Assembly: GCF_938045405.1 (NCBI RefSeq)
Contig: NZ_CALIMW010000057.1
Location: forward strand, 2,312-66,311
Direction of reading: 5' to 3'
From: an uncultured Campylobacter sp.
Lineage (GTDB): Bacteria > Campylobacterota > Campylobacteria > Campylobacterales > Campylobacteraceae
Length of the DNA stretch: 64,000 nt
Positions 20,791 to 38,540 of this stretch are shown here, one piece after another. The notes below the pieces were generated by a model that was not told where the DNA came from, searched no databases, and was given only the letters and a program-made list of their open reading frames with translations. Positions within the stretch are counted from its first letter, which is position 1. The number at the start of each line of letters is the position of its first letter. The position numbers and the translations under genes were made by a program.

Positions 20791-22612
20791 AATTTTTCTA
20801 ATCGCGGCTTTTAGCTGCGTATTGGCGTTTGGAGCTTCCAGCGAGGCGTTTTTTGCGAAATTCGACAAGGATTTCATCGTAGCGACGCCGAATTATAAGC
20901 GCTCGCTGCACAAGGAGCTAAAATCGCTCTACCAAGGCGCGTCCGATAAAGAAGTCCGCATCAAAGCGCTAAAGAGGCTGGTTTACAGCTCGAAAAATTT
21001 AGGGCTTGATTCCTCGCCTTATGAATCTGCGCTAGCCAAATTACAGGGCAAAGCAAGCGATAGCAGCACGCATTCTAAAAAACTCAAAGATGAAAACGCA
21101 AAAAATTCCAAAAGCTCGGACGAGAAAAACGCTTCAAATTTAGCGCATAGCCCCAAAGCCTCCGCCTCCAAAAATTCTAAAAATTCAAAATATTCCACTT
21201 CCAAAAATCTCAAAAATACGCGCGCGCCAGAAGAAGCCGATCTAAGCTCGCTATCTAGTGAGGATTTGGAATTTTTACGCTCCACTAGGCCCCGCGGCGC
21301 GGACGACGCAAAAAATTCAACAGACGATGCGCATAGCAGCGACTCAAGCGAAAATCCCGCAGGAGCCAACGACTCCTCGCAAGCGCAGAATTCAGCAGGT
21401 AGTACTGCGACCGAGCGATTAGATTCTGAGCTTCGCAAAAGCAGCGTAAAAAAATCCTCCTCCGATGCCAAACTCGCTTTAGCATCGCTGCGCGGCGATG
21501 GGGATGAGATCGTGCTTGAGTTTAACCGCGATCTAAAGCGCGGCGATTATAAAGATTTTACGATCGCAAGTAGCGATAATTTTCGCTTCGTGATTGATTT
21601 TAGCGCGCGGCAAAAGTCACAAAAAACGCGGCTTAAAGATAGCTTTGTTAGCGATGTACGCGTCTCGCAATACAACGACAAGACCGTGCGCATCGTACTT
21701 AGCGACCCGAAAGAATTTAACGCAAACGTTGAAATTAGCGGCAATATGATGATTTTAAGTACGGCTGAAGGCTTAAAAGCCGCAAAATCCGCGCGCGCAG
21801 AAAAAAACAAGGATCAAAAATCAGGGCGCAATCGCAGACGCGAGCAAGATAGCGAGCCGCAAATCAGCACGATAGATGATGCGCAAGGTGCCAAAACCGC
21901 GTCCGTGGCCGTCGGTAAAATTTACAAATCGACCAAGGGCAAGCTCATCGTAATTGATCCGGGTCACGGCGGCAGCGATTCGGGCGCGGTCGGAAACGGG
22001 CTGAAGGAAAAAAATGTCGTGCTAGCCACATCCAAAAAGCTCGGCGCATTGCTTCAGAAACGCGGCTATAAGGTGCTTTATACGCGCAGCACCGACGTTT
22101 TTATAAATTTAAGGTCGCGCACCGCTTTCGCCGCTAAAAAAAACGCCGATATGTTTATCTCGATCCACGCAAACGCCGCTCCTAACGCTAGCTCAGCACT
22201 TAAAATGAGCGGCGTGGAGACCTTTTTCTTAAGCCCGGCTAGAAGCGAGCGCAGCAAAAACGCCGCCGCGCTCGAAAACAGGGGCGATTTGGAGGATATG
22301 AATACCTTCTCGAAGCAGACCTTCCTAAATTTTTTAAACCGCGAGAAGATAATCTCTTCAAACAAGCTTGCCATCGATATTCAAAGCTATATGCTAAGCT
22401 CGGTCAAAAAGAGCTTCTCAAGCAGAGACGGAGGCGTGCGCGAGGCGCCATTTTGGGTGTTGGTGGGCGCTACGATGCCCGCGGTGCTCGTGGAGATGGG
22501 CTACATCACGCACCCGCAGGAGGGTAAAAATTTAGGCAAAAGCGCCTATCAGGACCGCATCGCCCAAGGCATCGCAAACGGCGTAGACGCGTACTTTCAG
22601 AAAAACAAGTGA
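20774..22612 (+). CDS. amiA: N-acetylmuramoyl-L-alanine amidase (AMIN domain + Amidase_3) with a long S/K/N-rich low-complexity linker
   Basis: 612 aa. Signal peptide, AMIN-like segment, then LIVIDPGHGGSDSGA ... ISIHANA Amidase_3 catalytic motifs. Position equals C. jejuni amiA. Confidence 0.85.
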   Translation: MAKIVKIFLIAAFSCVLAFGASSEAFFAKFDKDFIVATPNYKRSLHKELKSLYQGASDKEVRIKALKRLVYSSKNLGLDSSPYESALAKLQGKASDSSTHSKKLKDENAKNSKSSDEKNASNLAHSPKASASKNSKNSKYSTSKNLKNTRAPEEADLSSLSSEDLEFLRSTRPRGADDAKNSTDDAHSSDSSENPAGANDSSQAQNSAGSTATERLDSELRKSSVKKSSSDAKLALASLRGDGDEIVLEFNRDLKRGDYKDFTIASSDNFRFVIDFSARQKSQKTRLKDSFVSDVRVSQYNDKTVRIVLSDPKEFNANVEISGNMMILSTAEGLKAAKSARAEKNKDQKSGRNRRREQDSEPQISTIDDAQGAKTASVAVGKIYKSTKGKLIVIDPGHGGSDSGAVGNGLKEKNVVLATSKKLGALLQKRGYKVLYTRSTDVFINLRSRTAFAAKKNADMFISIHANAAPNASSALKMSGVETFFLSPARSERSKNAAALENRGDLEDMNTFSKQTFLNFLNREKIISSNKLAIDIQSYMLSSVKKSFSSRDGGVREAPFWVLVGATMPAVLVEMGYITHPQEGKNLGKSAYQDRIAQGIANGVDAYFQKNK

Positions 22613-22649
22613 TGAAATTTCACGCGCTGCGCTTTCTGAGAGCAGGATG

Positions 22650-23000
22650 AAATTTTATTTCGGCGCGAGATTTGCTCCGCGGATATAAGTTTGGTGAGCG
22701 GCACAGATCTTGCGATAAACAGAGCGCGGAGGCGGTAAATTTAAAATTTTAAAGCCCACAGCGCTAAATTTAAAGCAAAACGTGCGGCGTTTGCATGCAA
22801 AATTCGCTCGCATGCCAAATATTTACTACGGGCAGGTAAATTTTACGGAGCGTCTTGCGGCGCCACGAGCTAGGGATGTATACGGCTTAGGCGCGGAATT
22901 TTAACGCGGCTCGGCGTAAAATTTTAAAGCACGGACTTGACACCACTTGCTCAGCATAGTGCGACTGGCGGTAAAATTTACCGACAGAATCGCATTTAAG
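22650..23000. repeat. intergenic cluster of GC-block + RAAATTY repeat units
   Basis: Units include ggcggtaaatttaaaattttaaagcc, gctaaatttaaagc, gcatgcaaaattcgctcgcatgcc, gggcaggtaaattttacggagcg, ggcgcggaattttaacgcggc, cgtaaaattttaaagcacgg and ggcggtaaaatttaccgac. Confidence 0.7.
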
Positions 23001-23279
23001 CCGCGCGAAAATAGCGATTTTGTCGCACTAACGCAAGTCGTGTTTCAAACCGCATCCGCGCAATTAGGATTGCGTTTAAGTTATGAGTATGTGTATCGCT
23101 CAAGCCACGCTTAACGGCGCAGTGGCGTCCTGAAATTTCGCTCTATGTCCGCAGGACGCGCAATAATATTTGCGTAATGCTGCGAACGCGGCAATTACAG
23201 CGTGCCGATGCCTGCGCTCTATGTGCATTAAAGGTGCGGCTGAATCGTAAATTTAAAGATAAAATTTAAAAGGTCTGAA

Positions 23280-23999
23280 ATGAAAAAAATCGTATTTTTG
23301 ATCCTGCTTTTCGCAGCCGTTGCGCTCGCGCTTTATGTTACTTCGCGCGTAAATCCAAATCTTTTCGCCGAAATCAAAATCCTAGGCGCACTACTAAACG
23401 CCACGATTTTCGGCGTCGCGCTCATCGCCTTAGCGATCGGCGAAAAGGAGCTCGTGCGCTTTCCGTTTCTTACCGCCTCGCTACTGGCGCTGTTTTCGGG
23501 ACTGGTAGAGGGCGTGCTGCTCTTCGAAAACCGCTACTACATCGCGATCACGGCGGCAGCGTTCGTCGCCTTCGTCTTTTATCTGCAGATAAGGCACAAA
23601 AGATTTTCAAACAAAGCTTATAAAAATTCTGCGAACGAAGGCTCTAGAAATTTAGATGAGAGCGCAAATTTAAAAGACGCGGATTTCGGCGGCGCAAAAG
23701 AGGCGCAGGAGCTGCAAAATAAAAGCGCCGCGGCGGATGAAATTTTAAACTTTAAAAGCGGTGGCGAAATTTCAAATTCTCAAAGCGAGGATGAAATTTT
23801 AAATTCTAGTGGCGATCTCGGTGAAAATTTCGCGAGCGGCGCCGATGAAAATTCTACGCATCGCGCTGATGAAAATTCCGACGAAAATTTTAAAATTTTA
23901 AACGGCGGCGCGGGCGAAGGTAGCGCGGACGAAAATTCCGTGCAAAATTTCAATCAGGATGGTGAAAATTCCGCGCCCGGCGCAAGGCGCGATAGATGA
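23280..23999 (+). CDS. membrane protein with C-terminal acidic ENS/ENF/EIL low-complexity repeats, hypothetical
   Basis: 239 aa. About 4 TM helices, then about 120 aa of D/E/N/S repeats encoded by gatgaaaatt-type units. ATGA-coupled to the next ORF. Confidence 0.5.
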   Translation: MKKIVFLILLFAAVALALYVTSRVNPNLFAEIKILGALLNATIFGVALIALAIGEKELVRFPFLTASLLALFSGLVEGVLLFENRYYIAITAAAFVAFVFYLQIRHKRFSNKAYKNSANEGSRNLDESANLKDADFGGAKEAQELQNKSAAADEILNFKSGGEISNSQSEDEILNSSGDLGENFASGADENSTHRADENSDENFKILNGGAGEGSADENSVQNFNQDGENSAPGARRDR

Positions 24000-24322
24000 T
24001 CAAATCCGCGCTGATCGCGCTTGCAGTGATATTTTTGCTGCTTTTAAATTTAGCCAATCTCTTCGGCATGACACGCATAAGCGGGCCGGTGCCTGCGATG
24101 ATCTGGTTTGCGATCAGCTTCTGCGGGGTTTTTTACCTATACAAATTTTGCGGCGCAAAGCCCGTCGCGGCGCGGATCGGGATCTTTGCCGTAGCCTTCG
24201 TGGGCGGGTTTTTCACGAGCGTTTTGTACTACGGATTTTTTAATTCGCAAACTTTGGAATTTGCCTTTACATACGCCCTTTTCGCGGTGGTTTTTACGCT
24301 CGGTATCGGCGTGATTTTGTAG
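23996..24322 (+). CDS. small integral membrane protein, hypothetical
   Basis: 108 aa with 4 hydrophobic helices. Start overlaps the stop of the previous ORF. Confidence 0.5.
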   Translation: MIKSALIALAVIFLLLLNLANLFGMTRISGPVPAMIWFAISFCGVFYLYKFCGAKPVAARIGIFAVAFVGGFFTSVLYYGFFNSQTLEFAFTYALFAVVFTLGIGVIL

Positions 24323-24424
24323 CGAGTTTTAATTTAGCGCCTACTTCAAATTTCACCGCCGACTTAAAAACAAGTCCTGCGCGATTTTGTAGAATTTCAA
24401 AATTTATCCGTGCGAGAACCAAAT

Positions 24425-25531
24425 TTACATCCTTATCTTGTAGGTTTTGTAGTTATCCTTCATCCTAAACGTCAGCAAATTTTGCAAAATTCCAAAGAGG
24501 ATCATAAAGGTGATGAAGCTGCTACCGCCATAGCTGAAAAACGGCAGCGGCACGCCTACGACGGGCGCGAAACCCACCACCATCGAGATATTAACGCCCG
24601 TGTAGATGAAAATGAGCGAGGCAAGCGCGCTCGTAAAGACCCGTATCAGATAGTCGCTTTTAAAATCGTAGTTCAGGCTCAGCAGATGCAGTATCAGCAG
24701 CGCATACAGCGCGATCAGCGCGGCAGCCCCCACGAAGCCGAAGCGCTCGATCGTATAAGCGAAGATAAAATCGCTCGTCGCAATCGGCAAGAATTTAAAG
24801 TGCGTCTGCGTCGCTTCATCCTTATCCTTGCCGTAGATGCCGCCGTTTCCGATAGCGATGATCGCCTGCTTGACCTGGTAATTGGGCTCCTCGCTGATAA
24901 AATCGGCGATGCGCTTTTTTTGATAATCGTGCATGTTTTCGTACAAAATCGGCGAGCTGGCCACAAAAACGATGATCAGCGTAAGCCAAATTTTTTTATC
25001 CACGCCGATGATGAAAAGAATAGCAAATCCGGTCAAAAAAAGTATCGCGGCGGTGCCCAGATCGGGCTCTTTAGCGATCAAAACGAAAGGTAGAAGTATG
25101 TAAAAGCTAAGGCGCAAAAAATCCTTCAGCCCGTAGCCGTTTTTCGGCGGCGGATTTTTATGTATAAGATACATCAGCATCAGGATAAACGCGGGCTTCA
25201 TCACCTCGCTGGGCTGCAGCGTAAAATGCACGAAAGGGATCTCCAGCCAGCGCCTAGCTCCTAGCTTGCTAACGCCGAAAAAATCGACGCTGAGCAGCAA
25301 TATGATATTTGTCCAATAAAATATCGGAATCAGATATAAAAATTTGCGTATCGGAAAGAGAAAAAATAGAGTAAAAACGGCAAATCCTACGCCGAAATAA
25401 ACGACCTGTTTCGATGAGAGTACGTCGTTTGCCTCGCTTATTAAAACGTATGAAAAAACCACTATCGGCACGATCAAAAAAGGTTGAATGAAATCAAAAT
25501 ATGCTAAAATCTTTTTGTCAATTTTAAACAA
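24425..25531 (-). CDS. SEDS-family peptidoglycan glycosyltransferase (RodA/FtsW)
   Basis: 368 aa polytopic protein matching the FtsW/RodA/SpoVE family. C. jejuni mrdB occupies this position. Confidence 0.85.
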   Translation of the reverse strand: MFKIDKKILAYFDFIQPFLIVPIVVFSYVLISEANDVLSSKQVVYFGVGFAVFTLFFLFPIRKFLYLIPIFYWTNIILLLSVDFFGVSKLGARRWLEIPFVHFTLQPSEVMKPAFILMLMYLIHKNPPPKNGYGLKDFLRLSFYILLPFVLIAKEPDLGTAAILFLTGFAILFIIGVDKKIWLTLIIVFVASSPILYENMHDYQKKRIADFISEEPNYQVKQAIIAIGNGGIYGKDKDEATQTHFKFLPIATSDFIFAYTIERFGFVGAAALIALYALLILHLLSLNYDFKSDYLIRVFTSALASLIFIYTGVNISMVVGFAPVVGVPLPFFSYGGSSFITFMILFGILQNLLTFRMKDNYKTYKIRM

Positions 25532-25584
25532 CGCTTAATCCTAATTAAAATTTTGACGTAAGAATAGCCAAAAAAGGTATAAAT

Positions 25585-26937
25585 TTGGATAATCTAATAG
25601 CACAATGCAGCGAAAGGCTCGACGTTTTTTTAAGCTCGCAGCTTGGAATTTCGCGCAACCAAATATCAAGCCTGATCAAATCCGCAGCGGTCAGAGTGGA
25701 CGGCGCGGTGCAAACTAAGCCCGGCTACAAACTATCTGCAGGCGAGCTCGTGCACATCGACTACCCCGCGCCTGCGCCGCAGCAAACGAGCGCGGAGCGG
25801 CTGAATTTCGACGTTAAAATTTTATACGAGGACGATGATCTGCTCGTGGTAAATAAGCCCGCGGGCCTTACCGTCCACCCCGCCGCAAGCGTCAAAGAAC
25901 CCACGCTCGTGGACTGGCTCAAGTCTCGCGGCTATCTGCTTTCCACGCTCGGCGGCGAGCTTCGCGCAGGCATCGTGCACCGCCTTGATAAGCTTACCAG
26001 CGGCGCCCTGCTCGTCGCTAAAAACAACGCCGCGCATGCCGCGCTATCGGCACAGCTAAGCGATAAGAGCATGGGGCGGATATACCTCGCGCTCATCGAT
26101 CTGCCGCTGAAAGAACCCTGCGTGATCGAGCGCCCGATCGCTCGCAACCCAGCAAACCGCCTAAAAATGGGGATCGTACCCGGCGGGCGCAACGCAAAGA
26201 GCGCGTTTTATGAAATTCTAAGCGGCACAGAACTAACGGAGCTTCAAAACTCCGCCCAGAAGTGCGATGAAATTTTAAGTACGGGCGCGAGTACGGCTGC
26301 GGGCAAGAGCGCGGGCATGGATGAAATTTTAAACGACTATGCAGGCGCGGACAACGCGGACGAAATCTCAAATAGCTGCATGCAGAGCGCGGATAAAATT
26401 TCAATCCAAAGCGCAGATAAAATTCCAAGCAGCCGCGCGGGCAACGCAGGTAAAATTCCAAACAATCTCGTAGATAGCGCAGATAAAATTTTAACCGCCA
26501 AAATGAGCGCGGATCAAACCCGCACCGCCCGTCTCGCCGAGAATAAATTTTTAAATTTTAAAAATCCCGCTCAAAACTATAAGTTGCCGCCGATAAACCT
26601 AAAGAGCTTTAATCTCGTCGCGGCAAAGCTCTTCACGGGTCGCACGCATCAGATCCGCGTGCATTTAAGCTCGATAAATCGGCACATTTTGGGCGATCAT
26701 TTATACGGATTTAAGAGCGAAAACGCTAAAATTAGCAGGATTTTGCTCCATGCCTATTTGCTCTATTTCATCCATCCGCGAAGCGGCAAAGAGGTGAAAA
26801 TATGCGCGGGCTTGCCGAGCGAATTTCTAAATTTTACGACAAATCAAAAGGTAAAGGATGAAATTTATGAAAAAATTTTACCGACTAACGTTGAGCGCTA
26901 CTTTAGCGATATTAGCGGGTGGCTGCGCTATGTCTAG
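25585..26937 (+). CDS. rluD: 23S rRNA pseudouridine synthase, RluA/RluD family, with a ~125-aa in-frame low-complexity insertion
   Basis: S4 domain N-terminus. Catalytic HRLDKLTSG motif. C-terminal QIRVH motif. 450 aa versus about 300-330 aa typical. The insertion spans about aa 215-340 (nt ~26227-26605), made of DEIL/ADKI repeats. Confidence 0.85.
   Translation: MDNLIAQCSERLDVFLSSQLGISRNQISSLIKSAAVRVDGAVQTKPGYKLSAGELVHIDYPAPAPQQTSAERLNFDVKILYEDDDLLVVNKPAGLTVHPAASVKEPTLVDWLKSRGYLLSTLGGELRAGIVHRLDKLTSGALLVAKNNAAHAALSAQLSDKSMGRIYLALIDLPLKEPCVIERPIARNPANRLKMGIVPGGRNAKSAFYEILSGTELTELQNSAQKCDEILSTGASTAAGKSAGMDEILNDYAGADNADEISNSCMQSADKISIQSADKIPSSRAGNAGKIPNNLVDSADKILTAKMSADQTRTARLAENKFLNFKNPAQNYKLPPINLKSFNLVAAKLFTGRTHQIRVHLSSINRHILGDHLYGFKSENAKISRILLHAYLLYFIHPRSGKEVKICAGLPSEFLNFTTNQKVKDEIYEKILPTNVERYFSDISGWLRYV
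26227..26605 (+). repeat. in-frame ~27-33-bp periodic GCGSRGATAAAATTY repeats inside rluD
   Basis: Units such as gcgatgaaattttaagt, gcgcggataaaatttcaatcc, gcgcagataaaattccaagc, gcaggtaaaattccaaac and gcgcagataaaattttaacc. Confidence 0.8.
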
Positions 26938-27532
26938 CGCGCCTAGTGCAAGCGACGAGAGCCTGCCGCGCGTAGAGGGGATCAGGACGATCACGAGCGA
27001 CGATGAGATCGGGCTTGAGTGGCCTAGATACGACTCAAATACCGCCGTGTTGGGCTTTGTCGTCTACCGAGCACCTGCAAGCGGCGGCGAAGCCAAAAAG
27101 ATCGCCACCATCGCAGACCCATACTCCACTCACTACGTAGATACGAGGCTGCAGCCGGGCACTTCGTATAAATACACGGTGCGCACATACGGCGCCAAGG
27201 GCGTTTCGGCTCCTTCTCCGGTCGCTATCGCAAGCACCGCTAAGATGCTAGAGTCCGTGCCGTTTGCGCAGGCGATCTACGGGCTTCCGGGCCGCGTTAA
27301 GATCATCTGGCGCCCGCATCCGGATCTTCGCGTAAGCTCCTATCTAATCGAGCGCCGTCCTAAGGGAGGCGAGTCATGGAGCACGATTAAAGAGGTTCGC
27401 GGCAGACTTAGCGCTGAATATATCGACAATATCGATTACGGCGAAGGATACGAATACCGCATCACCGTCAAAACCGAAAACGGAGAGCTGTCCAAGCCTA
27501 GTGCAGTCATTGCCGCAGCGCAGGCAGAATAA
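26858..27532 (+). CDS. fibronectin type III domain lipoprotein (FlpA-like, two FN3 repeats)
   Basis: Lipobox LAGGC|A. Two FN3-like modules (YKYTVRTYGAKG, YEYRITVKTENGELSKPS). Syntenic with C. jejuni flpA, but shorter than the three-FN3, roughly 410-aa FlpA I recall from C. jejuni. The true start is probably the internal Met (MKKFYRL). Confidence 0.65.
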   Translation: MKFMKKFYRLTLSATLAILAGGCAMSSAPSASDESLPRVEGIRTITSDDEIGLEWPRYDSNTAVLGFVVYRAPASGGEAKKIATIADPYSTHYVDTRLQPGTSYKYTVRTYGAKGVSAPSPVAIASTAKMLESVPFAQAIYGLPGRVKIIWRPHPDLRVSSYLIERRPKGGESWSTIKEVRGRLSAEYIDNIDYGEGYEYRITVKTENGELSKPSAVIAAAQAE

Positions 27533-27535
27533 AGT

Positions 27536-29632
27536 TTGCCGAATTTCATAACCCAAAGCGTGAGCCTGCCGCGGCTGCCGATTAAGCTCGGCGAGACCGA
27601 GTTTTTAGAGACGGCACGCGGTAGAAATTTAACGCTCGTGCGAACCAAAAGCTTTGATAGCGAGTTTTTTATCATCGTTAAGCCCAGCGGCGACAAAGTG
27701 ATAGTAAAGGGCGAAAAGATCACCAAGCCCGCCAAGATCGGCCATCTGCAACGAGCGCTCGAAATTTTTAAAGAGCGCTTCTGCGGGCAGATCATCTCGC
27801 AGGCGTTTGCCTACAAAGACAGCTCACTTACCGAAAAAACGCCGCTGATTTTGGACGAGAATGAAATTTTATCCCTCGTAAAAAGCTCTAAATTTAATAA
27901 AATTTTCATCGAGATCGGCTTCGGCTCAGGCAGACACCTGCTTCATCAAGCGCGCTCAAATCAAGACGCGCTGCTAATCGGCATCGAAATTTACAAGCCC
28001 GCGATCGAACAGGTCGCAAAGCTAGCGATCCGCGAGGGGCTGCAAAACATTGCGCTGATTGCCACCGACGCACGGGTTTTACTAAGCCTGCTTCCCGCAG
28101 GCTGCCTGCAGCGCGTATTTTTGCACTTCCCCGTGCCGTGGGACGACGCGCCGCACCGCCGCGTCATAAGCGACGAGTTCGCCTCGCAGATCGCACGCAC
28201 GCTCGGGCGCAGCGGCCGCTTCGAGCTTCGCACCGACAGCGAGGAGTACTTCCTCTACGCGATGCAAAAGCTCTCGCCCTACGTTCAGCACAAAGCGGGC
28301 GAAATTTCGCACTTCAAAAACCGAGACGCCGCCGTAGCGAGCAAATACGAGGATAGATGGCGCAAAATGGACAAAAACATCTACGATCTGATCTACGAGA
28401 ACAAAACCGCGGGCGTGGACGAACCGCAGCAGTTTGAGATGGAATTTTTAAAATTTGACGCGGCGGCAATCGCGCGAAATTTTAAAAATTCTACCTTCAA
28501 AGGCGAGGATTTTTTCGTGCATTTTGAGGAAATTTTTTACTTTGACGCGCAGAAAGACTTGGACGCGGATGGGGCTTGCGCGGAGCGCGGCGTAAATTTA
28601 AGCGGCGCGGGCGAAGTCATGAACGACGAGGCTACAAATTTGGACGCAATGCGCGGCAAAAATTTAACCGAGCGCGCAAGCGTGGATGAAATTTCGTCAG
28701 GCGGCGGCAAAATTTTAGCTACGACACCCGCGGATAAAATTTCAGCTTGCACGAACGCTACGCAAATTCTAAAAAAAGCAAGCGTTCTACCAAATACAAA
28801 CCGCGCGGATGAAACAGGCGTAAATTTAAACGAGGATCGCTTGAGCGCAAACGGCGTAAATTTAGCAAGCGATGTTCCTGTCGCGGTAAGCGCTAAATTT
28901 AGCCGCACTGCCCCTGGCGAAAAACGCGCTTTAGCCTGCGAGCAGATCGTAACAAAGCAAGGTACGCAGATAAACAGCGCAGCCGCCTCAAGCGATACAC
29001 CAAAAGCAAATAACCCGCTCGCAACAATCGACGCAAGCAACGCGCTAAATTCTATCGGCGCAGAGGGGGCGCCTGCAACTATCGACGCGACAGGGGCAGG
29101 CAATACACCCACAACGATCGATGCAATAGATGCGAGCAATGCGTTGAATGCGGACGGCTCGTTCGCAGCAGCCCGCACAAACGAAGCAAACGCGGCGCTA
29201 AACATAAGCGCAGTACCTTGCAAAAATGAATCGCAAGCTGAATTACAAAATAAGTCAAACTCTATCAAATCGCAAGTCGGTCGCCGAAGCGAGCCAGGCC
29301 ATGACGAGCTACAAGCCGAACACCAAGGCAAATTAAATCGTGCCGAGCAGCAATGGCAAGGCAAACCAAGCTGCGTTAAGTCGCAAGACGAATGGCAAAG
29401 CGAACCAAGCTGTACCGAGCAGCAAAACGAACGGCAAAGCAAGCCATGCGCCGCCGAGCCGCAGGACGTGCTAATCCTGCTTTCGCTCGGGGCATTCGAC
29501 TTTCCGCAGCAGTGTTTCATCCGCGCAAACGCAAGCGGCACGCGCTACTTCATCCGCCGCCCGCTTCCTACGCGCGAAAACCACGCGGCACATCAAAAAA
29601 TTTCGGAGATATTTTCACAATGGCAGAGATAA
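27536..29632 (+). CDS. trmB: tRNA (guanine46-N7)-methyltransferase TrmB with an N-terminal extension and a ~360-aa low-complexity C-terminal extension
   Basis: TTG start. SAM-MTase core IEIGFGSGRHLL ... LHFPVPWDD, about aa 110-340. Residues about 340-698 are repeat-derived low complexity (VNL/KNL/DEI units). The stop overlaps ftsE by 13 nt. Confidence 0.7.
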   Translation: MPNFITQSVSLPRLPIKLGETEFLETARGRNLTLVRTKSFDSEFFIIVKPSGDKVIVKGEKITKPAKIGHLQRALEIFKERFCGQIISQAFAYKDSSLTEKTPLILDENEILSLVKSSKFNKIFIEIGFGSGRHLLHQARSNQDALLIGIEIYKPAIEQVAKLAIREGLQNIALIATDARVLLSLLPAGCLQRVFLHFPVPWDDAPHRRVISDEFASQIARTLGRSGRFELRTDSEEYFLYAMQKLSPYVQHKAGEISHFKNRDAAVASKYEDRWRKMDKNIYDLIYENKTAGVDEPQQFEMEFLKFDAAAIARNFKNSTFKGEDFFVHFEEIFYFDAQKDLDADGACAERGVNLSGAGEVMNDEATNLDAMRGKNLTERASVDEISSGGGKILATTPADKISACTNATQILKKASVLPNTNRADETGVNLNEDRLSANGVNLASDVPVAVSAKFSRTAPGEKRALACEQIVTKQGTQINSAAASSDTPKANNPLATIDASNALNSIGAEGAPATIDATGAGNTPTTIDAIDASNALNADGSFAAARTNEANAALNISAVPCKNESQAELQNKSNSIKSQVGRRSEPGHDELQAEHQGKLNRAEQQWQGKPSCVKSQDEWQSEPSCTEQQNERQSKPCAAEPQDVLILLSLGAFDFPQQCFIRANASGTRYFIRRPLPTRENHAAHQKISEIFSQWQR
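28556..29470 (+). repeat. repeat-derived low-complexity tract forming the trmB C-terminal extension
   Basis: Recurring GC-rich block + (g/c)taaattta/gaaattt units. Both the sense frame and an antisense frame (28537..29541) are stop-free. Confidence 0.75.
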
Positions 29633-30309
29633 CGGACGATTACAACATCATCACCGCAGCGGGCCTCACGCTGGGCTACGAAAAGGCGGGCGCGGTCATC
29701 CAAGACGCGAGTTTCGGCATCGGCGCGAAGGACTTCGTCATCATCACGGGCAAGAGCGGCAGCGGCAAATCCACGCTGCTTAAGTCCTTCTACGGCGGCA
29801 TCGACATCATCGGCGGCGAGCTGAACGTCTGCCTGTGCGATCTAAAGGGCATCACAAACTCCGATCTGCGCACCCTGCGCCAGCGTATCGGCATTATCTT
29901 TCAAAACTACCGCCTGATCAACGAATGGACGATCGAGCGCAACATAATGCTTCCGTTAATGATAATGGGCTACAATCAGCAGGTCTGCCAAGACCAAGCC
30001 AAAAAGCTACTGCGCCACGTCGAGCTCGGGCATAAGATGGGCAAGTATCCGCTCGAGCTTAGCGGCGGCGAGCAGCAGCGCGTGGCTTTGGCGCGTGCGA
30101 TGGCGCATAATCCGCGCCTACTGCTGTGCGACGAGCCTACGGGAAATTTGGACGACTACTCCAGCGCCATTATTTGGAATTTGCTGCGCTCGGCGTGCGA
30201 GTCGTGGAACGCCTGCGTCGTCATCGTAACGCACAAAATGCCCGCCACGCTGCGTTTTAGGCACCGACATTTTGAGATTAAGGACGCTAAAGTAAATGAA
30301 ATCGATTAA
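29620..30309 (+). CDS. ftsE: cell division ATP-binding protein FtsE
   Basis: The internal ATG at 29620 gives a 229-aa protein starting [11 protein letters not shown]. Walker [13 protein letters not shown] signature LSGGEQQR, Walker B LLLCDEP. The longer track ORF from 29392 is an upstream extension into the trmB tail. Confidence 0.9.
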
Positions 30310-31111
30310 AACCCATTTCGGCGTGATCTTTTCGCTCGTCGCGCTGCTTTTTTCCGTGCAGTTTGGAATTTTTATGAGCAATCTGACCAAAAGCTACGAG
30401 CGCTCGATCCAAAACGAATATAACATCGTGCTAGTCTCCAAAACCTCGCTCAGCTTGCAAGACGCGCAAAAAGCGGTGCCTAAAATCAGCTCGATTAGCG
30501 AAATTTCCACAGCGGGCATCACCGAGCGACTGAAGGGTAAAATTTCACAAAACGCCTTTGCCGAGCTTAGTAAAAATTTGCCTAAATTTTATAGCGTCAA
30601 GCTCGAAAGCTTCCCCGACGCCGCGCAGCTTGCCAAGATTGAGCAGGATCTAAAGTCGATCGGCTCGCTCACGCGGGTTGAAATTTTTAAAAAGACCCAC
30701 GATGAAATTTTTAAAATTTTACTGCTTATAAAAAGCCTCGTTTACGGCTTTGCGTTTCTGATCGTGCTTTTAGGCGTGATGTTAATTCACCGCCAGATGC
30801 GTATCTGGGTTTACGAACACAAAGAGCGCATCGAGATCATGGAGCTTTTCGGCGCGTCGTTTCTGATAAAAAGCGGCAAACTCTACCGAATGGCGATAAT
30901 AGACTCCTTCATCGCTACGCTGATCGTGACCTGCTTCTACATAGCGCTTCCAGGCTGGGAGGTGTTTTCGACCACGCTTAAGGGTATCGGCGATCTGCGC
31001 ACCGCCATAGTGCTGCCTTACGATGCGCTGATTCTTTTGGGTGTCGCCTTGGCGCTATCTATCATCGCGGTAAGTTTTGTGATGCTGCAAATCGGAAATA
31101 AACGAGCATGA
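30296..31111 (+). CDS. ftsX: cell division permease FtsX-like
   Basis: 271 aa. Periplasmic loop plus C-terminal 3-TM FtsX-like permease. Overlaps the ftsE stop. Confidence 0.8.
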   Translation: MKSIKTHFGVIFSLVALLFSVQFGIFMSNLTKSYERSIQNEYNIVLVSKTSLSLQDAQKAVPKISSISEISTAGITERLKGKISQNAFAELSKNLPKFYSVKLESFPDAAQLAKIEQDLKSIGSLTRVEIFKKTHDEIFKILLLIKSLVYGFAFLIVLLGVMLIHRQMRIWVYEHKERIEIMELFGASFLIKSGKLYRMAIIDSFIATLIVTCFYIALPGWEVFSTTLKGIGDLRTAIVLPYDALILLGVALALSIIAVSFVMLQIGNKRA

Positions 31112-32490
31112 AAAGAGCTTTTTTAGCGCCGCTTCTTACGCTGGGGCTTGCCGCGGGTTTTATTTATGCCGCGCCCGCAAAGCAGCAGAGCACGAAAGAT
31201 AAGATCGCCAAAGCGGGTCAAGAGCTCAAAAGCTCGCAAAAGGAGGGGATGCAGCTCTCGCAAAAGATCGACGAGATTGCAGGTCAAATCGTAAAGGAGC
31301 AGGAGGGCTTTAAAAAGCGCGAGGGCGAGATCAAACAGCTAAGCGAAACGATCGAAGATCTAAAGGATCAATACGCCGCCGAAGCGCAGGAGCTTGAAAA
31401 GCTAAATAGCCAAAACGCCACGCTTCTTAGCGTGCAAAACGATCTGGAGAGCAAGATCATAAGCGTGATCTCGCAAGAGTTATCATTTGATCTAATCACC
31501 GACGTAAATTCCACCACCACGCCCGATTCTATCGTAGCTAGCGAAATTTTAGAGGGGCTCGGCGTCGTTATGAACGACGAGCTTAAAGGGCTAATCAAAG
31601 ACTACGAAAATAATCAAAATTTTATCAACGAGCAGAACAAAAAGATCAAATCGATCCAGGCGAGCATGGCGGGCTATGACAAGAAAAAAACCGATCTTGA
31701 CGCCAAGCAAACCACCCAAAAAGAGAAGCTCGCGCAGATGAAAAAGGACAAAGAGGACTACATCGCGCGCCTAGAGAAGATAAACGACGAGCAAGACGCC
31801 ATATCTAAGACCCTGCAGGAGCTTAAGATCATCGACGACGCCGAGGAAAAAGCCAAAGCGCAAAAGGAGGAAGCGGCACGCCAAGCAAAGCTTGAAGCGC
31901 AGAAGCAAAAGGAGCGCCAGGCGCGCGAAAAAGAGTATGCCAAAGCAAAAGCGGCTGCCAAAAAGGCGGGCAAACCCGAGCCTGCGCCTCCTAGCGAACC
32001 CGAGCCCGAAGTGAGCGAGCCGGCGGATGAGCGCGTAAGCAAGATCAACCAAAAGGTCAAGCAGTACGGCTCGAGCTATCAATCCTCGCGCGTTAAAAAA
32101 TACAGCGGAGCCAAGACCACAGCGCCTCTGAACGGCGCGTATTTGAAGAGAAAATTCGGCAACTACAACGATCCCGTATATAACATCAAACTTTTCAACG
32201 AAAATATCGTGCTGGGCTCAAACAGCGGCGACACGCAGGTTAAAGCGGTGCTGCCGGGCAAAGTGGTCTTTGCTAAAGAAACCGCCGTGCTCGATAAGGT
32301 CGTGATCCTAGAGCACAGCGGCGGCATCCACACGATCTACGCGCATCTAAATCAGATCCCGCCTACCGTGCGCGTCGGCTCCAACGTCAAAAAGGGCTAC
32401 ATCATCGGGCGCATCGGCTCGGATCTGACCTTTGAGGTGACGCAGCAGAACTACCACATCAACCCGCTCGATCTCATCAGCTTGAGGTAA
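31108..32490 (+). CDS. EnvC-like murein hydrolase activator (coiled-coil + C-terminal M23/LytM domain)
   Basis: 460 aa. Signal peptide, long coiled coil, then C-terminal LytM-type domain (HSGGIHTIYAHL). Canonical ftsE-ftsX-envC arrangement. Confidence 0.8.
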   Translation: MKRAFLAPLLTLGLAAGFIYAAPAKQQSTKDKIAKAGQELKSSQKEGMQLSQKIDEIAGQIVKEQEGFKKREGEIKQLSETIEDLKDQYAAEAQELEKLNSQNATLLSVQNDLESKIISVISQELSFDLITDVNSTTTPDSIVASEILEGLGVVMNDELKGLIKDYENNQNFINEQNKKIKSIQASMAGYDKKKTDLDAKQTTQKEKLAQMKKDKEDYIARLEKINDEQDAISKTLQELKIIDDAEEKAKAQKEEAARQAKLEAQKQKERQAREKEYAKAKAAAKKAGKPEPAPPSEPEPEVSEPADERVSKINQKVKQYGSSYQSSRVKKYSGAKTTAPLNGAYLKRKFGNYNDPVYNIKLFNENIVLGSNSGDTQVKAVLPGKVVFAKETAVLDKVVILEHSGGIHTIYAHLNQIPPTVRVGSNVKKGYIIGRIGSDLTFEVTQQNYHINPLDLISLR

Positions 32491-32493
32491 GCC

Positions 32494-32886
32494 GTGGGCA
32501 GGGGAAATTCTAAATTTAGCGGATCTTGCGAGGATGCCGAAAGTTTAAATTTAAGCGGACAGAATTCAGGCTGCGATTTAAATTTAGATGAGCAGAATTC
32601 TTTAAAAGAGCAGAATTTCGCCACTTCAAATTTGAACGATGAAAGCTCTGCGGCGGCGTTAAATTTAAACAGTCAAAGCTCTGCCGCCATAGATATTGCC
32701 TCTACGTCAAATTTAGATAGCGAGAATTCCGCCACGGGAGCCACTGCATTAAATTTTAAAAATAAGAATTCCGCGACGACGGACATCATAGCGACATCAA
32801 AAACGATGGCGGGCGCCGCAAAAACAGGAAGCTACAACGAGCGTCGTAGAAGTAAAAACGACGAAAACAGCGCAAAACGATATTGA
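32494..32886 (+). CDS. low-complexity ORF (QNS/ENS/LNL repeats); possibly a translated repeat array rather than a genuine gene
   Basis: 130-aa ORF made entirely of cagaattc/aaattt repeat units. No domain. Starts 4 nt after the envC stop. Confidence 0.25.
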   Translation: MGRGNSKFSGSCEDAESLNLSGQNSGCDLNLDEQNSLKEQNFATSNLNDESSAAALNLNSQSSAAIDIASTSNLDSENSATGATALNFKNKNSATTDIIATSKTMAGAAKTGSYNERRRSKNDENSAKRY

Positions 32887-32911
32887 GATTACAAGGGTAG
32901 CGGAGGAAATA

Positions 32912-33727
32912 ATGACAACAGAAATGGCGGCAGCAAAAGAAGCAGAAGCGGCGAAACCGCAAATCCAAGAGCTCACCAATTTTCTTAGCGAATACACCGC
33001 CAAGATGCTTAGCATCGGCACTTACACCGCGCGTATAGAGCACTGCGTGCGCAGGATAGCGGACGCTTACGACTATGAGGCTAGCCTGATGATCTTTGTG
33101 CGCCACTTCATCATCAGCGTGATGGATCCTGCGGACAACTCTATCCGCCGCACCTACGTCAAAACGGGCGCTGCGGCGCAGATCAGCTTCGATCTAATCT
33201 CGGAGCTAAGCGCGCTTAGCTGGGAAATTTACGACGAAAAAATCCCCCTTGCGCGCGCCAGAGCCTCATTTGCCGAAATTTTAGCCTCGCAGAAGAAAAG
33301 CTTTGCCAAAACTCTTATTTTGCTAAGCGTCGCAAATGCCGCATTCTGCGAGCTTTTTGGCGGCGACGGCGGCGCAATGGCGCTCGTTTTTGCGGCTACA
33401 GCTTTTGGAATTTGCGCCCGCTATCTGCTTAGCAAGCTTAAAATCAACCTAAAAATCCAATACATCGCAGTTTCGTTCGCAGTCTCCTTCATCGTCTCGC
33501 TAGGGGCTCGCTACGGGCTTAGCGCCACGCCCGACGTCGCCGTGGGATCGAGCATACTCTTTTTGATCCCGGGCGTCTGGCTGATCAACTCGGTATTTGA
33601 CATCCTAAACGAAAATATGCTCGTAGGCATCAGCAGAGGGCTAAACACGGGGCTTTTGATCATCTGCATCGCAATCGGGCTCTTTCTGACGCTTAGCATA
33701 TCAAATTTGGGGCTTGTAAATGTTTGA
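32912..33727 (+). CDS. threonine/serine exporter family protein (ThrE N-terminal domain, YjjP-like)
   Basis: 271 aa. Family-like N-terminus (IGTYTARIEHCVRRIADAYDYEASLMIF), multiple TM helices. Confidence 0.7.
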   Translation: MTTEMAAAKEAEAAKPQIQELTNFLSEYTAKMLSIGTYTARIEHCVRRIADAYDYEASLMIFVRHFIISVMDPADNSIRRTYVKTGAAAQISFDLISELSALSWEIYDEKIPLARARASFAEILASQKKSFAKTLILLSVANAAFCELFGGDGGAMALVFAATAFGICARYLLSKLKINLKIQYIAVSFAVSFIVSLGARYGLSATPDVAVGSSILFLIPGVWLINSVFDILNENMLVGISRGLNTGLLIICIAIGLFLTLSISNLGLVNV

Positions 33728-34220
33728 TATAGCGCTTTCGGTATTTAAAGACGCTTGCTTTGCCGCTGCGGCGGGGCTGGGGTTTGCGTATGCGTGCATG
33801 CCGCCAAAAAAGACGCTTATTTTCTCGGCGCTGCTTGCGGCAGTTGCGCATTCGTGCAGGTTTTTGCTGATTCAAAGCCAAATTTTCTCGATCGCCGCCG
33901 CGACGCTTTTTGCGTCGTTTCTGATCGGCGTTTTGGGGATGCTCTGCGCCAAGCGCCTCAAAGTGCCCGCAGAGATCATCGCCTTTCCCGCGCTGCTTCC
34001 GATGATCCCCGGCATCTACGCTTACAAGACGGTTTTAGCGCTGTTTTCTTATATCAAAGCCGCGGGCGCGCAGCAGAAGCTCGCCCACCTCATCTCGTTT
34101 TTCGACAACGCCCTCGCCACGGTCTCGATCTCGCTGGCGCTCGGCACGGGCGTTTCAATAACGCTGCTAATTTTCTACGAACAGTCCTTGATGATCACTC
34201 GAGGCGCAAGGAGCAAATAG
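33720..34220 (+). CDS. threonine/serine exporter family protein (YjjB-like partner subunit)
   Basis: 166 aa with 4-5 TM helices. Start overlaps the previous gene. Typical two-gene YjjP/YjjB arrangement. Confidence 0.65.
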   Translation: MFDIALSVFKDACFAAAAGLGFAYACMPPKKTLIFSALLAAVAHSCRFLLIQSQIFSIAAATLFASFLIGVLGMLCAKRLKVPAEIIAFPALLPMIPGIYAYKTVLALFSYIKAAGAQQKLAHLISFFDNALATVSISLALGTGVSITLLIFYEQSLMITRGARSK

Positions 34221-34346
34221 CGCTAAATAAGAAATTTTAAGCAGGCGCGGCGGGTAAATTTAAATTTTATTATCTTCGCTAGCGAGGTAAAATTTTATAA
34301 ATTTACCGCTCTTGCCGCGAAGGTAAAATTTAGTTATATCTTTCAT

Positions 34347-35354
34347 TTATCGCTCATTATTCGATATTTGTTTTATTGTTTTCTCTTTTTCATCGTAGTA
34401 GTATCCCATATAACTCAAAAGCATATTTCTGTAGCCCAAGATATATTTAAAGCTCTTATCTATCAATATGATATAAAAATCATATGTTGCATAATTATCT
34501 CTATATTTGAAAGCTATTTTATTGAATGGGCGGCTAGTGTCTATATCGCTATTTTCATAAATTTTATAAGTCATGCAAAATTCTTCCAAATTATTTTTAA
34601 AATTTCCATTTTCTTCACCATTAAGTAGTTTATATAAATTAAGAAATAATAAATTTATAGGGATTATGAGCGATGCTTCGATATTATTAATATCTATATT
34701 TGGATCTTGTAGATCTATCTTATACTTATAAACTCCATAATTTATTATTGCTTTATTCATGTCGCTTTCGCTAGCAAAATATAGATTGTATCTTAGATCC
34801 CCGTTTTCTAAAACCAAACTTTCCTTATCTTCCCAAGGATATACGACTTCGGTTTTAAAAATTTCTTTATCTATATAGGTCTCGGCATCTTGTATCGCCT
34901 TGCCGTTTCTACAAATTTTTGAGCCCAAATCCATAAGATAATCTAAATTTAGCCTTTTATCTATCTTGTAAAATTCGCATTTATCATCGGGGCGTTTATC
35001 CCCATGACATTTACTATGGACGCGTGTTAAATAATCTTTTAATTCTAGATCTTCAATATCTTCTTCGATGTGAAGATTTTTATATTTCATTCGGATATCA
35101 TCTATTTTTTTAGCGATTTTTTCTTTAGAAAAGTTTTCGCTTTCATGCATCTTTTTAAGCATACACTTTAACGCTCTATCTTTAAGCTGTATATCCGTAA
35201 GATTGCCATCTAGATCGCATACCCATTCATATGGATCGGTTTCAATTTTTTCGGCTGAATTTGGGTATTTATACTCCGCGATAATCGAAAGTATCGCGCA
35301 CAAAGCGCATATTATTATGATGAAGACCAAGCACAGATAATATCTCGTTTTCAA
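34347..35354 (-). CDS. AT-rich orphan membrane-anchored protein, hypothetical
   Basis: 335 aa. TTG start with AGGAG 8 nt upstream. N-terminal TM anchor. Very Lys/Asn/Tyr/Ile-rich, with gene GC far below neighbours. No recognisable domain. Confidence 0.55.
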   Translation of the reverse strand: MKTRYYLCLVFIIIICALCAILSIIAEYKYPNSAEKIETDPYEWVCDLDGNLTDIQLKDRALKCMLKKMHESENFSKEKIAKKIDDIRMKYKNLHIEEDIEDLELKDYLTRVHSKCHGDKRPDDKCEFYKIDKRLNLDYLMDLGSKICRNGKAIQDAETYIDKEIFKTEVVYPWEDKESLVLENGDLRYNLYFASESDMNKAIINYGVYKYKIDLQDPNIDINNIEASLIIPINLLFLNLYKLLNGEENGNFKNNLEEFCMTYKIYENSDIDTSRPFNKIAFKYRDNYATYDFYIILIDKSFKYILGYRNMLLSYMGYYYDEKEKTIKQISNNER

Positions 35355-35538
35355 ATTTCGCTCCTAAAATTTTCCGCAATATACCTCACATATACTTAAT
35401 CTACGATAATTTTAGTATGCCTCAAATATCGTTAAATCAGGGCTTTTCTTGATCCGCTTCGGCAAATTTCATCTCAATGATTCGTAGATATTTGGCTCTC
35501 TTGCGCCGCTCGTCGCACCTCTATCGCCAAAGTAAAAT

Positions 35539-36699
35539 TTAGCCGAGCTTTTCTGACTTAAACGCCCTTTTTACCGTCATATAAAAGCCGCTAAAGATAA
35601 AAAGCGCCATACAAAGCGAGATGAACGACCATAAAATTTTACCCGCTAGCCCGAAAAAATAGCCCGTATGCAGCTGATAGTTCGCGTTTTTGACGTCATC
35701 TGCGGTGATGCCCTCCGCCTGCTTCTGCTCCGCGACCTTGCCCTCCTTTAGCTTCACGCTCACGCCTTTTGGACGCGCAGTGGCAGGCGCATCAGGCTCG
35801 TAGTATCTGATGCTCATCTTATCTCCGGCTGCGAGCATTAGGGTAAATTCTTTATACTCTATGCCACTTGATCTGAATATCTCATAAGCCCTCTGCGCGT
35901 CGCTAAATTTATACGTAGCGGGCTTTTTGCCCTCCTCTTTAGCAGGTGCGGCGGCGTGATCTTTAGAAGTGGCGGCTTTAGGTGCGCTAGCTTGCGGCAA
36001 ATTTTGCGAACTTACGAAAAGCTTCATCACGGCATCGTTATACCAGCTATACGACCAGTTAAGCCCGGTTAAACAGATGAGCAGGTAAATTATCGCGCTT
36101 AAAGAACCTAGGCTCGTGTGTAGATTGTAAAAAAGAGCGTATTTTTTGAGTTTAAAATTTGGCCTTATCGCCTCGATAAATTTACGCCTAAGCCTTGGGA
36201 AATACAGCCAGACGCCGCTTATTACGAGCAGTATCATCGCCACGGCGCTCGCGCCTACGATCTGTTTGCCGATCTCGCCCGCGGTTTTGTTGCCGCTTAG
36301 CGCTAGTCCTAAATTTCGGTGAAGCGACATCACCGTTAGCACAAAGCCCGTGCCGCGATCCTTGCCGATGATCTGCGCGGTGTATGGATTGACCAGATAC
36401 GCATCATTTCTGTTTGCGTAAATGACGAAGGCTTCGTCATCGCTTTTGGGCACGACGAGCCTTACGGGCTGCTTAGCGCCCGTTTGCTCGCTAAAGCTTT
36501 GCAGGATTTTCTCCACGCTTTGCATTTCGCCCGTTTTTTCGACCTTTTTAGAGCCCGCGTTTATTAGCGCCTCAAACTCGTGCTGATACGATAAAATCGC
36601 ACCCGTAACGCCAATGATAAGCAGCGGTATAGAAAAAACTATCGACAAAATAAGATGGACGTTAAACAAAATTTTATTGCGCTTCAAAAGCGAGCTCAT
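35539..36699 (-). CDS. PepSY-associated TM helix domain protein (PiuB-like)
   Basis: 386 aa. N-terminal KRNKILFNVHLILSIVFSIPLLIIGVTGAILSY is typical of the PepSY_TM family. Second TM pair at the C-terminus. Confidence 0.8.
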   Translation of the reverse strand: MSSLLKRNKILFNVHLILSIVFSIPLLIIGVTGAILSYQHEFEALINAGSKKVEKTGEMQSVEKILQSFSEQTGAKQPVRLVVPKSDDEAFVIYANRNDAYLVNPYTAQIIGKDRGTGFVLTVMSLHRNLGLALSGNKTAGEIGKQIVGASAVAMILLVISGVWLYFPRLRRKFIEAIRPNFKLKKYALFYNLHTSLGSLSAIIYLLICLTGLNWSYSWYNDAVMKLFVSSQNLPQASAPKAATSKDHAAAPAKEEGKKPATYKFSDAQRAYEIFRSSGIEYKEFTLMLAAGDKMSIRYYEPDAPATARPKGVSVKLKEGKVAEQKQAEGITADDVKNANYQLHTGYFFGLAGKILWSFISLCMALFIFSGFYMTVKRAFKSEKLG

Positions 36700-36775
36700 T
36701 GTAGATCCTTGCGAGATAAATTTAATCTTTATTTGATTGAGGTTCGCAATTATATTGTGCGATTTTAAATATTTA

Positions 36776-36791
36776 GATAATTATCATTAAG
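36776..36791. promoter_or_regulatory. putative Fur box (iron-responsive operator) upstream of the PepSY gene 35539..36699
   Basis: gataattatcattaag closely resembles the GATAATGATAATCATTATC Fur consensus. It lies about 80 bp upstream of the PepSY-TM gene start (minus strand) and about 260 bp upstream of paralogue A. Confidence 0.45.
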
Positions 36792-37049
36792 ATTTAGGAT
36801 GCGAAATTTTAAGGCACGTTATGGCATCGCAAGAGCGCCTAGGCACGTCGCGTAATGTCATAAACTGCATATTTCAGAATATCAAAGCTAAAAATTTAAT
36901 CCGCCTTTCGCGCGGCAAGATCACGCTAGCGAGATAAAATTCTAATCGCGATTTATAAAAAGCGCGCTTAGAATCTCGTAAATTTAGAAATTTTGCGCTA
37001 AAATTGCCAAAGACGCGAGCTTGCGTAATCCAAAAACAAGGTCATTATT

Positions 37050-37739: not shown

Positions 37740-37781
37740 GCTTAATTTAACGCTAAAAATATCTAAATTTAAGGCGGCGGC

Positions 37782-38408: not shown

Positions 38409-38540
38409 ATCCGCGCTCAAAAAAACTATAAGCTTAAAAGGCGCGAATGAGCGCACAAACATAGAAATTCTAAAAAAAGACAAAGAGGGCGCGGGCGATT
38501 AAATTTTAAATTTAGCCACGCGCGAGCAATAGCTGTGAAA

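Follow-up and report, generated by a model that had tools for sequence, protein, structure and literature searches.

A hypervariable low-complexity insert in the predicted tRNA methyltransferase TrmB of an uncultured Campylobacter lineage

Why does an open reading frame (ORF) that begins as a tRNA methyltransferase gene run on for about another kilobase of repeat-like sequence and stop only inside the next gene, and why is the opposite strand of the same tract free of stop codons as well? These questions are raised by trmB in a 64,000-nucleotide (nt) stretch of DNA from an uncultured Campylobacter sp. (hereafter the window, whose numbering is used throughout for coordinates). The gene occupies 27536..29632 on the forward strand and encodes 698 amino acids (aa) between a TTG start and a TAA stop; this frame is present in the ORF list, and it is also supported by Pfam and by a perfect match in NCBI. 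A reading made from the letters and ORFs alone (the sequence-only reading) had taken all that follows residue 340 for a repeat-derived extension running into ftsE. The comparisons summarized here point to a different arrangement, in which only aa 341-643, encoded by 28556..29464 of the same strand (303 aa, 909 nt), are extra. This segment is a hypervariable low-complexity insert within the protein, and the open antisense frame is a by-product of its composition.

The identity of the protein is supported by several lines of comparison. NCBI has a protein from an uncultured Campylobacter sp. that bears the name TrmB and matches the window protein at 100% identity, and Pfam places a Methyltransf_4 domain (PF02390) at aa 121-285 (E=1e-37, 129.5 bits vs a curated cut-off of 24); downstream of this match, including aa 341-643, the Pfam scan found no domain. 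Using the folded core as the query, Foldseek against the PDB returned the TrmB structures of E. coli, B. subtilis and S. pneumoniae (E ~1e-13, target TM-scores 0.71-0.80), and phmmer with the window protein against PDB sequences returned 3dxx at 1.6e-18. The glycine-rich motif for binding S-adenosylmethionine and the conserved core residues of the TrmB family are present, and among 80 homologues E126, G128, G130, D178, H197-F198-P199, P201-W202, R232 and D234 are invariant or nearly so. Judged by sequence, the protein belongs to the TrmB family in its long Campylobacter form and is a predicted m7G46 (7-methylguanosine at position 46) methyltransferase.

Is the extra sequence attached to the end of this protein or placed inside it? 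A search for near relatives among 5.8 billion proteins, clustered at 90% identity, returned more than 120 clusters, all from uncultured Campylobacter, 612-812 aa long and covering 99-100% of the query; they were drawn from independent NCBI, ENA, JGI and Logan assemblies. The next-nearest TrmBs, found among 1.84 billion cluster representatives, share 42-47% identity with the window protein and have only 377-403 aa, compared with its 698 aa. This is the length comparison with other Campylobacter that had been called for earlier. The short proteins align to aa 1-340 (with their residues 1 to ~337) and again to aa 644-698, where they match at G652, P657, Y671, P676, T679, N682, A685 and H686, and they are gapped over the entire tract between the two parts. 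Named insert-free examples are C. gastrosuis WP_284937077.1 (395 aa) and the protein of Campylobacter sp. 19-13652 (398 aa). Since the short TrmBs match only aa 1-340 and 644-698, the sequence comparison identifies the tract as an internal insertion between two conserved beta-strands, not a C-terminal extension. The C. gastrosuis protein is built of the same three parts as the window protein, with the Methyltransf_4 core flanked by a beta domain at the N-terminus and a beta/helix domain at the C-terminus; what sets the window protein apart is the presence of 303 more residues between two strands of the latter domain, a number that is 138-425 in its lineage relatives.

The earlier proposal of an extension of ~360 aa reaching the protein end thus has to be redrawn, because aa 644-698 align with TrmBs of 377-403 aa and constitute the conserved native C-terminus, so the native sequence does not finish near residue 340. 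The boundaries of the three segments were set from alignments, from the ratio of non-synonymous to synonymous substitution rates (dN/dS) and from the predicted local distance difference test (pLDDT) of a structural model. The N-terminal part (aa 1-340, 27536..28555 on the forward strand) comprises the methyltransferase core, preceded by a Campylobacter-type beta domain and followed by the opening strands of the C-terminal domain, and is nearly invariant across a 34-sequence alignment of relatives. The native C-terminus (29465..29629, same strand) comprises three beta-strands and a helix, and its final ~55 residues (DVLILLSLGAFDFPQQCFIR...SQWQR) are almost invariant among the 120 relatives listed. 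No relative has a stop near residue 340, and the insert is found throughout the lineage; the sequence-only reading had named a stop there, or loss of the tract from close strains, as findings that would count against it.

The structural model agrees with this division. In the AlphaFold2 model of the window TrmB, which was built on 80 homologues, pLDDT exceeds 90 for aa 1-340 and 645-698, but aa 341-349 and 359-635 fall below 50 and lack secondary structure. The insert is placed between the strands 327-336 and 645-653, both of which have pLDDT >90. The model makes it very probable that the insert is an intrinsically disordered, low-complexity insertion in a beta-hairpin loop of the accessory C-terminal domain.

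How the insert varies among relatives tells more about the constraint acting on it. A locus scan with one representative genome per GTDB species yielded 55 loci, all from this Campylobacter group and one of them labelled C. gracilis. Together with the window gene, 46 complete intact relative genes formed a set of 47 sequences, to which one frameshifted gene (L036) is additional. The insert is present in all 46 relatives at lengths of 138-425 aa, and its sense frame is always open, whereas stops interrupt the other two sense frames at 3.9 and 7.6 per 100 codons. The earlier suggestion that translatability of the sense strand is maintained is borne out here, as the tract stays open and in frame in 46/46 genes despite a threefold range of length. 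The sequence itself is far less stable. In the 34-sequence alignment, aa 341-643 are full of substitutions and in-frame insertions and deletions, and in a MAFFT alignment of the 47 genes at the DNA level, identity to the window at the first, second and third codon positions is 0.976/0.970/0.891 for the core and 0.995/0.996/0.960 for the C-terminus, but a flat 0.789/0.812/0.791 for the insert. Nei-Gojobori dN/dS is 0.11 in the core, 0.53 in the insert and 0.07 in the C-terminus. From these patterns it is quite likely that the amino-acid sequence of the insert drifts under strongly relaxed constraint. The GC content of the insert is 53%.

Part of the length variation can be followed at the level of modules. 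A ~40-aa module (NATQILKKAS..NTN..ETGVNLNEDRLSxNGVNL, 28754..28870 on the forward strand) is duplicated in longer alleles: a blastp self-comparison of the protein gave no off-diagonal matches, but in a sliding-window identity scan L046 and L023 each show two copies, offset by 157 and 134 aa respectively and with 20 of 28-29 residues identical. In the 34-sequence alignment, alleles have both copies of the module, copy 1 only (as in the window) or a fused copy (P0016). Such duplication and loss is the pattern expected from unequal recombination between repeats. Further along the same strand are degenerate TIDASNALN-type repeats (29015..29202; families D3 and D9 of the direct repeats, spaced 99, 54 and 36 nt apart), which give a protein self-match at a 33-aa offset, followed by Q/E/K-rich repeats of 39 nt or 13 aa (29241..29468; families D1 and D2). 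The codon-phased repeat structure that had been offered as one account of the open frames is indeed found, in that every direct-repeat spacing within the insert is a multiple of 3. The description of the region as a repeat tract holds for this phasing and much less for the repeats themselves, which are weak locally: identity within the direct-repeat families is 60-94%, and the only array reported by Tandem Repeats Finder (29383..29463) is a weak one, with 2.1 copies of a 39-nt unit and 76% matches. Most of the length variation comes from dispersed duplication and loss of modules.

The AAATTT hexamers, which had been described as a component of the repeats, need separate consideration. Nine of them do lie in 28594..28900 (starting at 28594, 28636, 28660, 28689, 28710, 28737, 28822, 28858 and 28895), but they are not specific to the tract, as the 64-kb window contains 423 copies. 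The nine occur in all three codon phases and encode N-L, E-I-S, K-I-L/S and K-F. In the 46 relatives they are 98% conserved, compared with 80-83% for the other bases of 28556..28945, a value that was reached in 0 of 10,000 draws of nine random hexamers. Third codon positions within AAATTT are 97.6% conserved in the insert vs 78% outside the hexamers, and 97.8% vs 84.5% across the whole gene. The residues that seem invariant inside the insert are those encoded by AAATTT hexamers. The second half of the insert (28946..29464) has none.

These observations bear directly on the strongest alternative, namely that the disordered insert has a function in TrmB, acting for instance as a tether, as a scaffold for interactions or as an arm that binds RNA, with N-L, K-I-S and K-I-L as its short linear motifs. 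Its dN/dS lies below 1, every lineage member has an insert of at least 138 aa, and N354, N376-L377-T378, I386, K392-I393, D400-K401-I402 and Q410-I411 are invariant, as such a reading would predict. However, these invariant residues coincide with AAATTT in three codon phases, and the synonymous third positions of the hexamers are preserved as well (the 97.6% vs 78% given above), which argues for constraint on the DNA and not on the peptide. The gain and loss of whole modules over a threefold range of length, and the lack of a Pfam domain or predicted structure, also speak against a defined function. We regard a functional region as possible but doubtful; it partly overlaps the explanation preferred here and does not exclude it, and the dN/dS together with the universal presence in the lineage leaves room for a weak function.

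If the hexamers are conserved as DNA, could the DNA itself be what is selected? In the window (1..64000) the 423 AAATTT copies amount to 24.6 times the mononucleotide expectation and are evenly spread. Coding regions contain 299, in all three phases, against 44±6 after codon shuffling, and 296 against 81±6.7 when only synonymous codons are shuffled and the proteins are kept fixed (z=32); because of this last excess, codon choice can be said to be bent towards AAATTT. Non-coding DNA has 14.4 copies per kb and coding DNA 5.3, and the 390 nt with which the insert begins reach ~23 per kb. By the same synonymous-codon shuffles GAATTC is not enriched (z=1.0), and GAATTT and AAATTC are enriched only modestly (z=5.3 and 5.7). 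In C. gastrosuis (38% GC), AAATTT reaches 6.7 per kb, similar to 6.6 in the window; only 1-2 site positions are held in common with C. gastrosuis or Campylobacter sp. 19-13652, so that density is kept and the sites are not. A separate observation on the window is that AATATT is depleted in 1..64000.

Some likeness to known systems exists. DNA uptake in C. jejuni requires RAATTY sites methylated by CtsM (PMC8468864), and AAATTT matches the RAATTY pattern. By analogy, we hypothesize that AAATTT may be linked to RAATTY methylation or DNA uptake, and the bias may represent a highly iterated palindrome. AAATTT shares with cyanobacterial HIP1 and the methylated RAATTY of C. jejuni that it is short and palindromic and occurs in vast excess, in coding and non-coding DNA alike and in every frame. 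Unlike the RAATTY system, only AAATTT is strongly enriched here and not the other RAATTY variants, and the likeness concerns the hexamer, not the insert. Literature searches on TrmB insertions in Campylobacter, AAATTT in Campylobacter and C. gracilis repeats returned a description of neither the insert nor the hexamer bias, and the bias is the more surprising observation of the two.

Sequence of a similar kind is found elsewhere in the window. The rluD gene (25585..26937, forward strand, assigned by Pfam), which is located two genes upstream of trmB, carries its own hypervariable low-complexity insert at ~26230..26600. This insert interrupts the catalytic domain, splitting the PseudoU_synth_2 matches into two stretches; the distance from HRLDK to GRTHQIR ranges over 179-336 aa in 49 sequences, and RluD has 450 aa in the window vs 332-337 aa in C. 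gastrosuis and Campylobacter sp. 19-13652. A cell-wall amidase of the Amidase_3/AMIN type (20774..22612) has 612 aa vs 447 aa for the syntenic C. gastrosuis gene, and Ser/Lys/Asn-rich low-complexity stretches occur at its aa 66-253 and 309-405. In a Pfam scan of ten other window proteins, Mfd, LeuRS, IleRS and SpoT had ordinary lengths; low-complexity inserts are recurrent in this genome and not universal. Two further ORFs were noted. One of 130 aa (32494..32886), located between the M23 peptidase gene and the gene that follows it, consists almost entirely of low-complexity sequence punctuated by AAATTT and GAATTC (..SLNLSGQNS..LNLDEQNS..) and may be a gene or a spacer. The other is the 5' part of a 283-aa ORF without a Pfam match (58700..58955, reverse strand), in which units ~33-40 nt apart end in GAAATTT(T/C) or TAAATTTT and translate into RNF/LNF repeats; the stretch resembles an intergenic array with AAATTT punctuation through which reading has continued. 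The RluD insert and these two ORFs have a common texture of GC-rich spacers punctuated by AAATTT.

A second alternative can be built on these data, in which selection favours the AAATTT-punctuated DNA itself (say, a methylated signal of self-recognition or uptake, or a bendable A-tract), which spreads into tolerant loops with the peptide as a passenger. The ~25-fold over-representation, the coding excess (296 vs 81±6.7, z=32), the high density in the first 390 nt of the insert, the hexamers standing as conserved islands in it, the shared texture of the RluD insert and the ORFs 32494..32886 and 58700..58955, and the fit of AAATTT to the pattern that CtsM must methylate for C. jejuni uptake (PMC8468864) are all in its favour. 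Yet the second half of the insert (28946..29464) is without any AAATTT, GAATTC is not enriched although it is RAATTY as well, GAATTT and AAATTC are enriched only modestly, and AAATTT positions are not conserved between species. For the insert as a whole this account is unlikely. We would likewise give only a tentative place, on the improbable side, to the broader idea that a genome-wide DNA force (self-recognition or uptake of the RAATTY/CtsM type, or A-tract chromosome organisation) both creates and preserves AAATTT and in doing so generates hypervariable disordered segments. If it were true, AAATTT-punctuated filler DNA would expand wherever it is tolerated, in frame in the loops of TrmB, RluD and the amidase.

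An in-frame mobile or palindromic element, such as a Rickettsia palindromic element or a miniature inverted-repeat transposable element, or else an intein, would also place extra sequence in a surface loop of a housekeeping gene, and weak inverted repeats (I3, 20 nt, 75% complementary) do occur near the borders. But the second arm of this repeat is in the conserved C-terminal coding region and not at the insert border, the insert has no consensus element and is hypervariable in length and sequence, and tblastn found it nowhere else, neither in the 64-kb window nor, with trmB masked, in the flanks of the 55 related loci. A dispersed element of this kind is largely ruled out by that copy search and by the border repeats. 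Inteins begin with Cys or Ser and end in His-Asn followed by Cys, Ser or Thr. Here the insert starts with D-L-D (D341) and ends with E-P-Q (Q643) before D644, which is not intein-like, and Pfam found no Hint/intein domain in aa 341-643. Altogether, a mobile element or an intein is very improbable. An RNA-level intron was rejected too, as sequence that is spliced out needs no frame, yet the tract is in frame and stop-free in 46/46 relatives.

What, then, of the second part of the question, the open frame on the opposite strand? The ORF list does contain it (28537..29541, reverse strand, 334 aa), and the tract 28556..29464 is stop-free in the sense frame and in one antisense frame, as reported, with 11-21 stops in the other four frames. 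The permutation that the sequence-only reading had proposed was run: dinucleotide shuffles of the tract give an expectation of ~10 stops per frame, and because 0/5000 had any open frame, the open frames are not a matter of chance for random DNA of this composition. The antisense phase gains a stop by one of two routes, either from a sense codon starting with TA after a codon ending in T or C, or from a sense codon starting with CA after a codon ending in T. Tyr codons do not occur in the insert, and 0/20 of its CA-starting codons follow T. The antisense frame is stop-free because Tyr is missing and because Gln and His codons rarely come after T-ending codons.

The openness of the antisense frame is accordingly sensitive to what is held fixed. 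Its probability is 0.02 under codon shuffling, 0.13 for a fixed protein with codons drawn anew from window usage, and 0.19 when synonymous codons are shuffled within the insert. The frame is open in 13/46 relatives, and the remaining 33 carry 1-5 stops. Could it nevertheless be a real overlapping gene that keeps both strands stop-free? The 334 open codons in the window, the value of 0.02 and the absence of an open frame on either strand in 5000 dinucleotide shuffles might suggest so. But the stops in 33/46 relatives and the values of 0.13-0.19 with the sense protein fixed tell against it, the product is itself low-complexity, and a promoter and terminator scan found nothing above shuffled expectation, promoter-like sites not being in excess. 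An Rfam scan of 25000..31000 (E≤1) gave two chance matches to microRNA models, both at 28428..28502 in the core upstream of the insert. As for the idea that selection maintains the opposed open frame, a frame interrupted in 33/46 relatives and left open by 13-19% of synonymous reshuffles does not uphold it. Since the frame is unconserved and the amino-acid sequence largely explains its openness, we conclude from the sequence comparison that the antisense ORF is a by-product of sense composition and phase, and that a gene there is extremely unlikely.

Several points weigh against our interpretation of the tract as a translated insert under relaxed constraint. Among the 47 complete relatives, L036 is frameshifted within the insert, at ~2700..2800 of its locus, and this is either a consensus error of a metagenome-assembled genome (MAG) or a real pseudogene. 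Five related MAG contigs (L039, L047, L049, L050 and L051) break off at the insert or shortly after entering it, as would be expected of a stretch that assemblers handle poorly, and the insert is likely the cause of the breaks. All sequences are metagenome-assembled, and repeats are open to mis-assembly. The dN/dS values depend on the alignment of a repetitive region, where protein-guided alignment biases dN downwards, and the value of 0.53 being below 1, some protein-level constraint on the insert may exist. Taken to the extreme, the first three points would make the long ORF an assembly artefact or a decaying gene, a prospect next to negligible given the same architecture in >120 clusters from NCBI, ENA, JGI and Logan and the strong purifying selection on the flanks, including a C-terminus (dN/dS 0.07) that is translatable only through the insert. 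Mobile element, intein, antisense gene and assembly artefact are each contradicted by specific tests.

The relation of the insert to ftsE has a simpler answer. The ftsE gene (29620..30309, forward strand), which encodes an ABC ATPase with a Pfam ABC_tran match, begins with an ATG at 29620, and the trmB stop (29630-29632) does lie 13 nt inside it, as first described. The gene order rluD, FN3 lipoprotein, trmB, ftsE, ftsX and M23 peptidase is the same in the window, C. gastrosuis and Campylobacter sp. 19-13652, and trmB overlaps ftsE by 13 nt in C. gastrosuis (11176..11188 in L056) and by 26 nt in Campylobacter sp. 19-13652. The comparison of these loci indicates that gene order and overlap are ancestral, and because insert-free species have the overlap too, it is unrelated to the extra sequence. 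The repeat tract itself therefore does not reach ftsE; C. gastrosuis, with its TrmB of 395 aa, likewise has both the C-terminal 55 aa and the overlap of 13 nt. The ribosome-binding region of ftsE has GGAG at 29605-29608. Within 29465..29632, the C-terminal coding region of trmB, the synonymous substitution rate (dS) is 0.10 vs 0.21 in the core, which fits a double constraint imposed by the TrmB C-terminus and by the ribosome-binding region and start of ftsE. The gene between rluD and trmB (26858..27532) encodes an FN3-domain lipoprotein of 224 aa with one fn3 match, and its syntenic counterparts in C. gastrosuis and Campylobacter sp. 19-13652 have 401-403 aa. Its position is, we presume, that of C. 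jejuni flpA.

Taken together, the tract would be best explained as a lineage-specific, disordered, low-complexity insertion that is translated as part of TrmB. Modules would be duplicated or deleted when degenerate codon-phased repeats recombine unequally or slip, and the insert would lengthen or shorten accordingly; this is the mutational mechanism that we infer for its changes in length. Selection would keep the reading frame and the freedom from stops, as both are needed for translation to continue into the C-terminal strands and helix and for ribosomes to arrive at the overlapping start of ftsE. The insert would be held in frame because essential C-terminal strands and the coupled start of ftsE lie downstream of it. 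TrmB with the insert is presumably made and active. In the first part of the insert, selection would also preserve the AAATTT hexamers, presumably for a reason that applies to DNA across the whole genome. The open antisense frame would be a side effect.

Comparable situations are known from other organisms. Housekeeping proteins of Plasmodium falciparum contain in-frame, disordered, repeat-prone inserts in surface loops that are length-variable and near-neutral. The TrmB insert resembles them in its loop position, in length variation from isolate to isolate, in near-neutral evolution and in the part that slippage or unequal recombination may play; it differs in belonging to a bacterium, in being neither Asn-rich nor driven by extreme AT content, and in being punctuated in part by a conserved DNA hexamer. 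Two other likenesses are looser. Rickettsia palindromic elements add in-frame peptide segments to protein genes, likewise at tolerant surface positions and with the ORF kept. However, the TrmB insert has neither an element consensus nor terminal repeats at its borders, no other copies of it were found by the search described above, and its length is hypervariable. The C-terminal linker of FtsZ is a length-variable disordered segment between conserved elements, and such linkers are ancient and join domains. It shares with the insert disorder, little sequence conservation, large length differences and conserved flanks, but the insert interrupts a hairpin within a domain, is found in one lineage only and varies between near relatives.

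The locus probably offers a clear bacterial example of the situation known from Plasmodium, that is, a conserved enzyme that tolerates a large, fast-evolving disordered insert on which the only firm constraint is the reading frame. It also carries a caution for annotation, as a long stop-free antisense frame can stem purely from the composition of the sense protein. Metagenomic studies could use the insert as a ready hypervariable marker to tell strains of this uncultured gut Campylobacter apart, and the AAATTT bias that punctuates part of it may mark a DNA signal that extends throughout Campylobacter.

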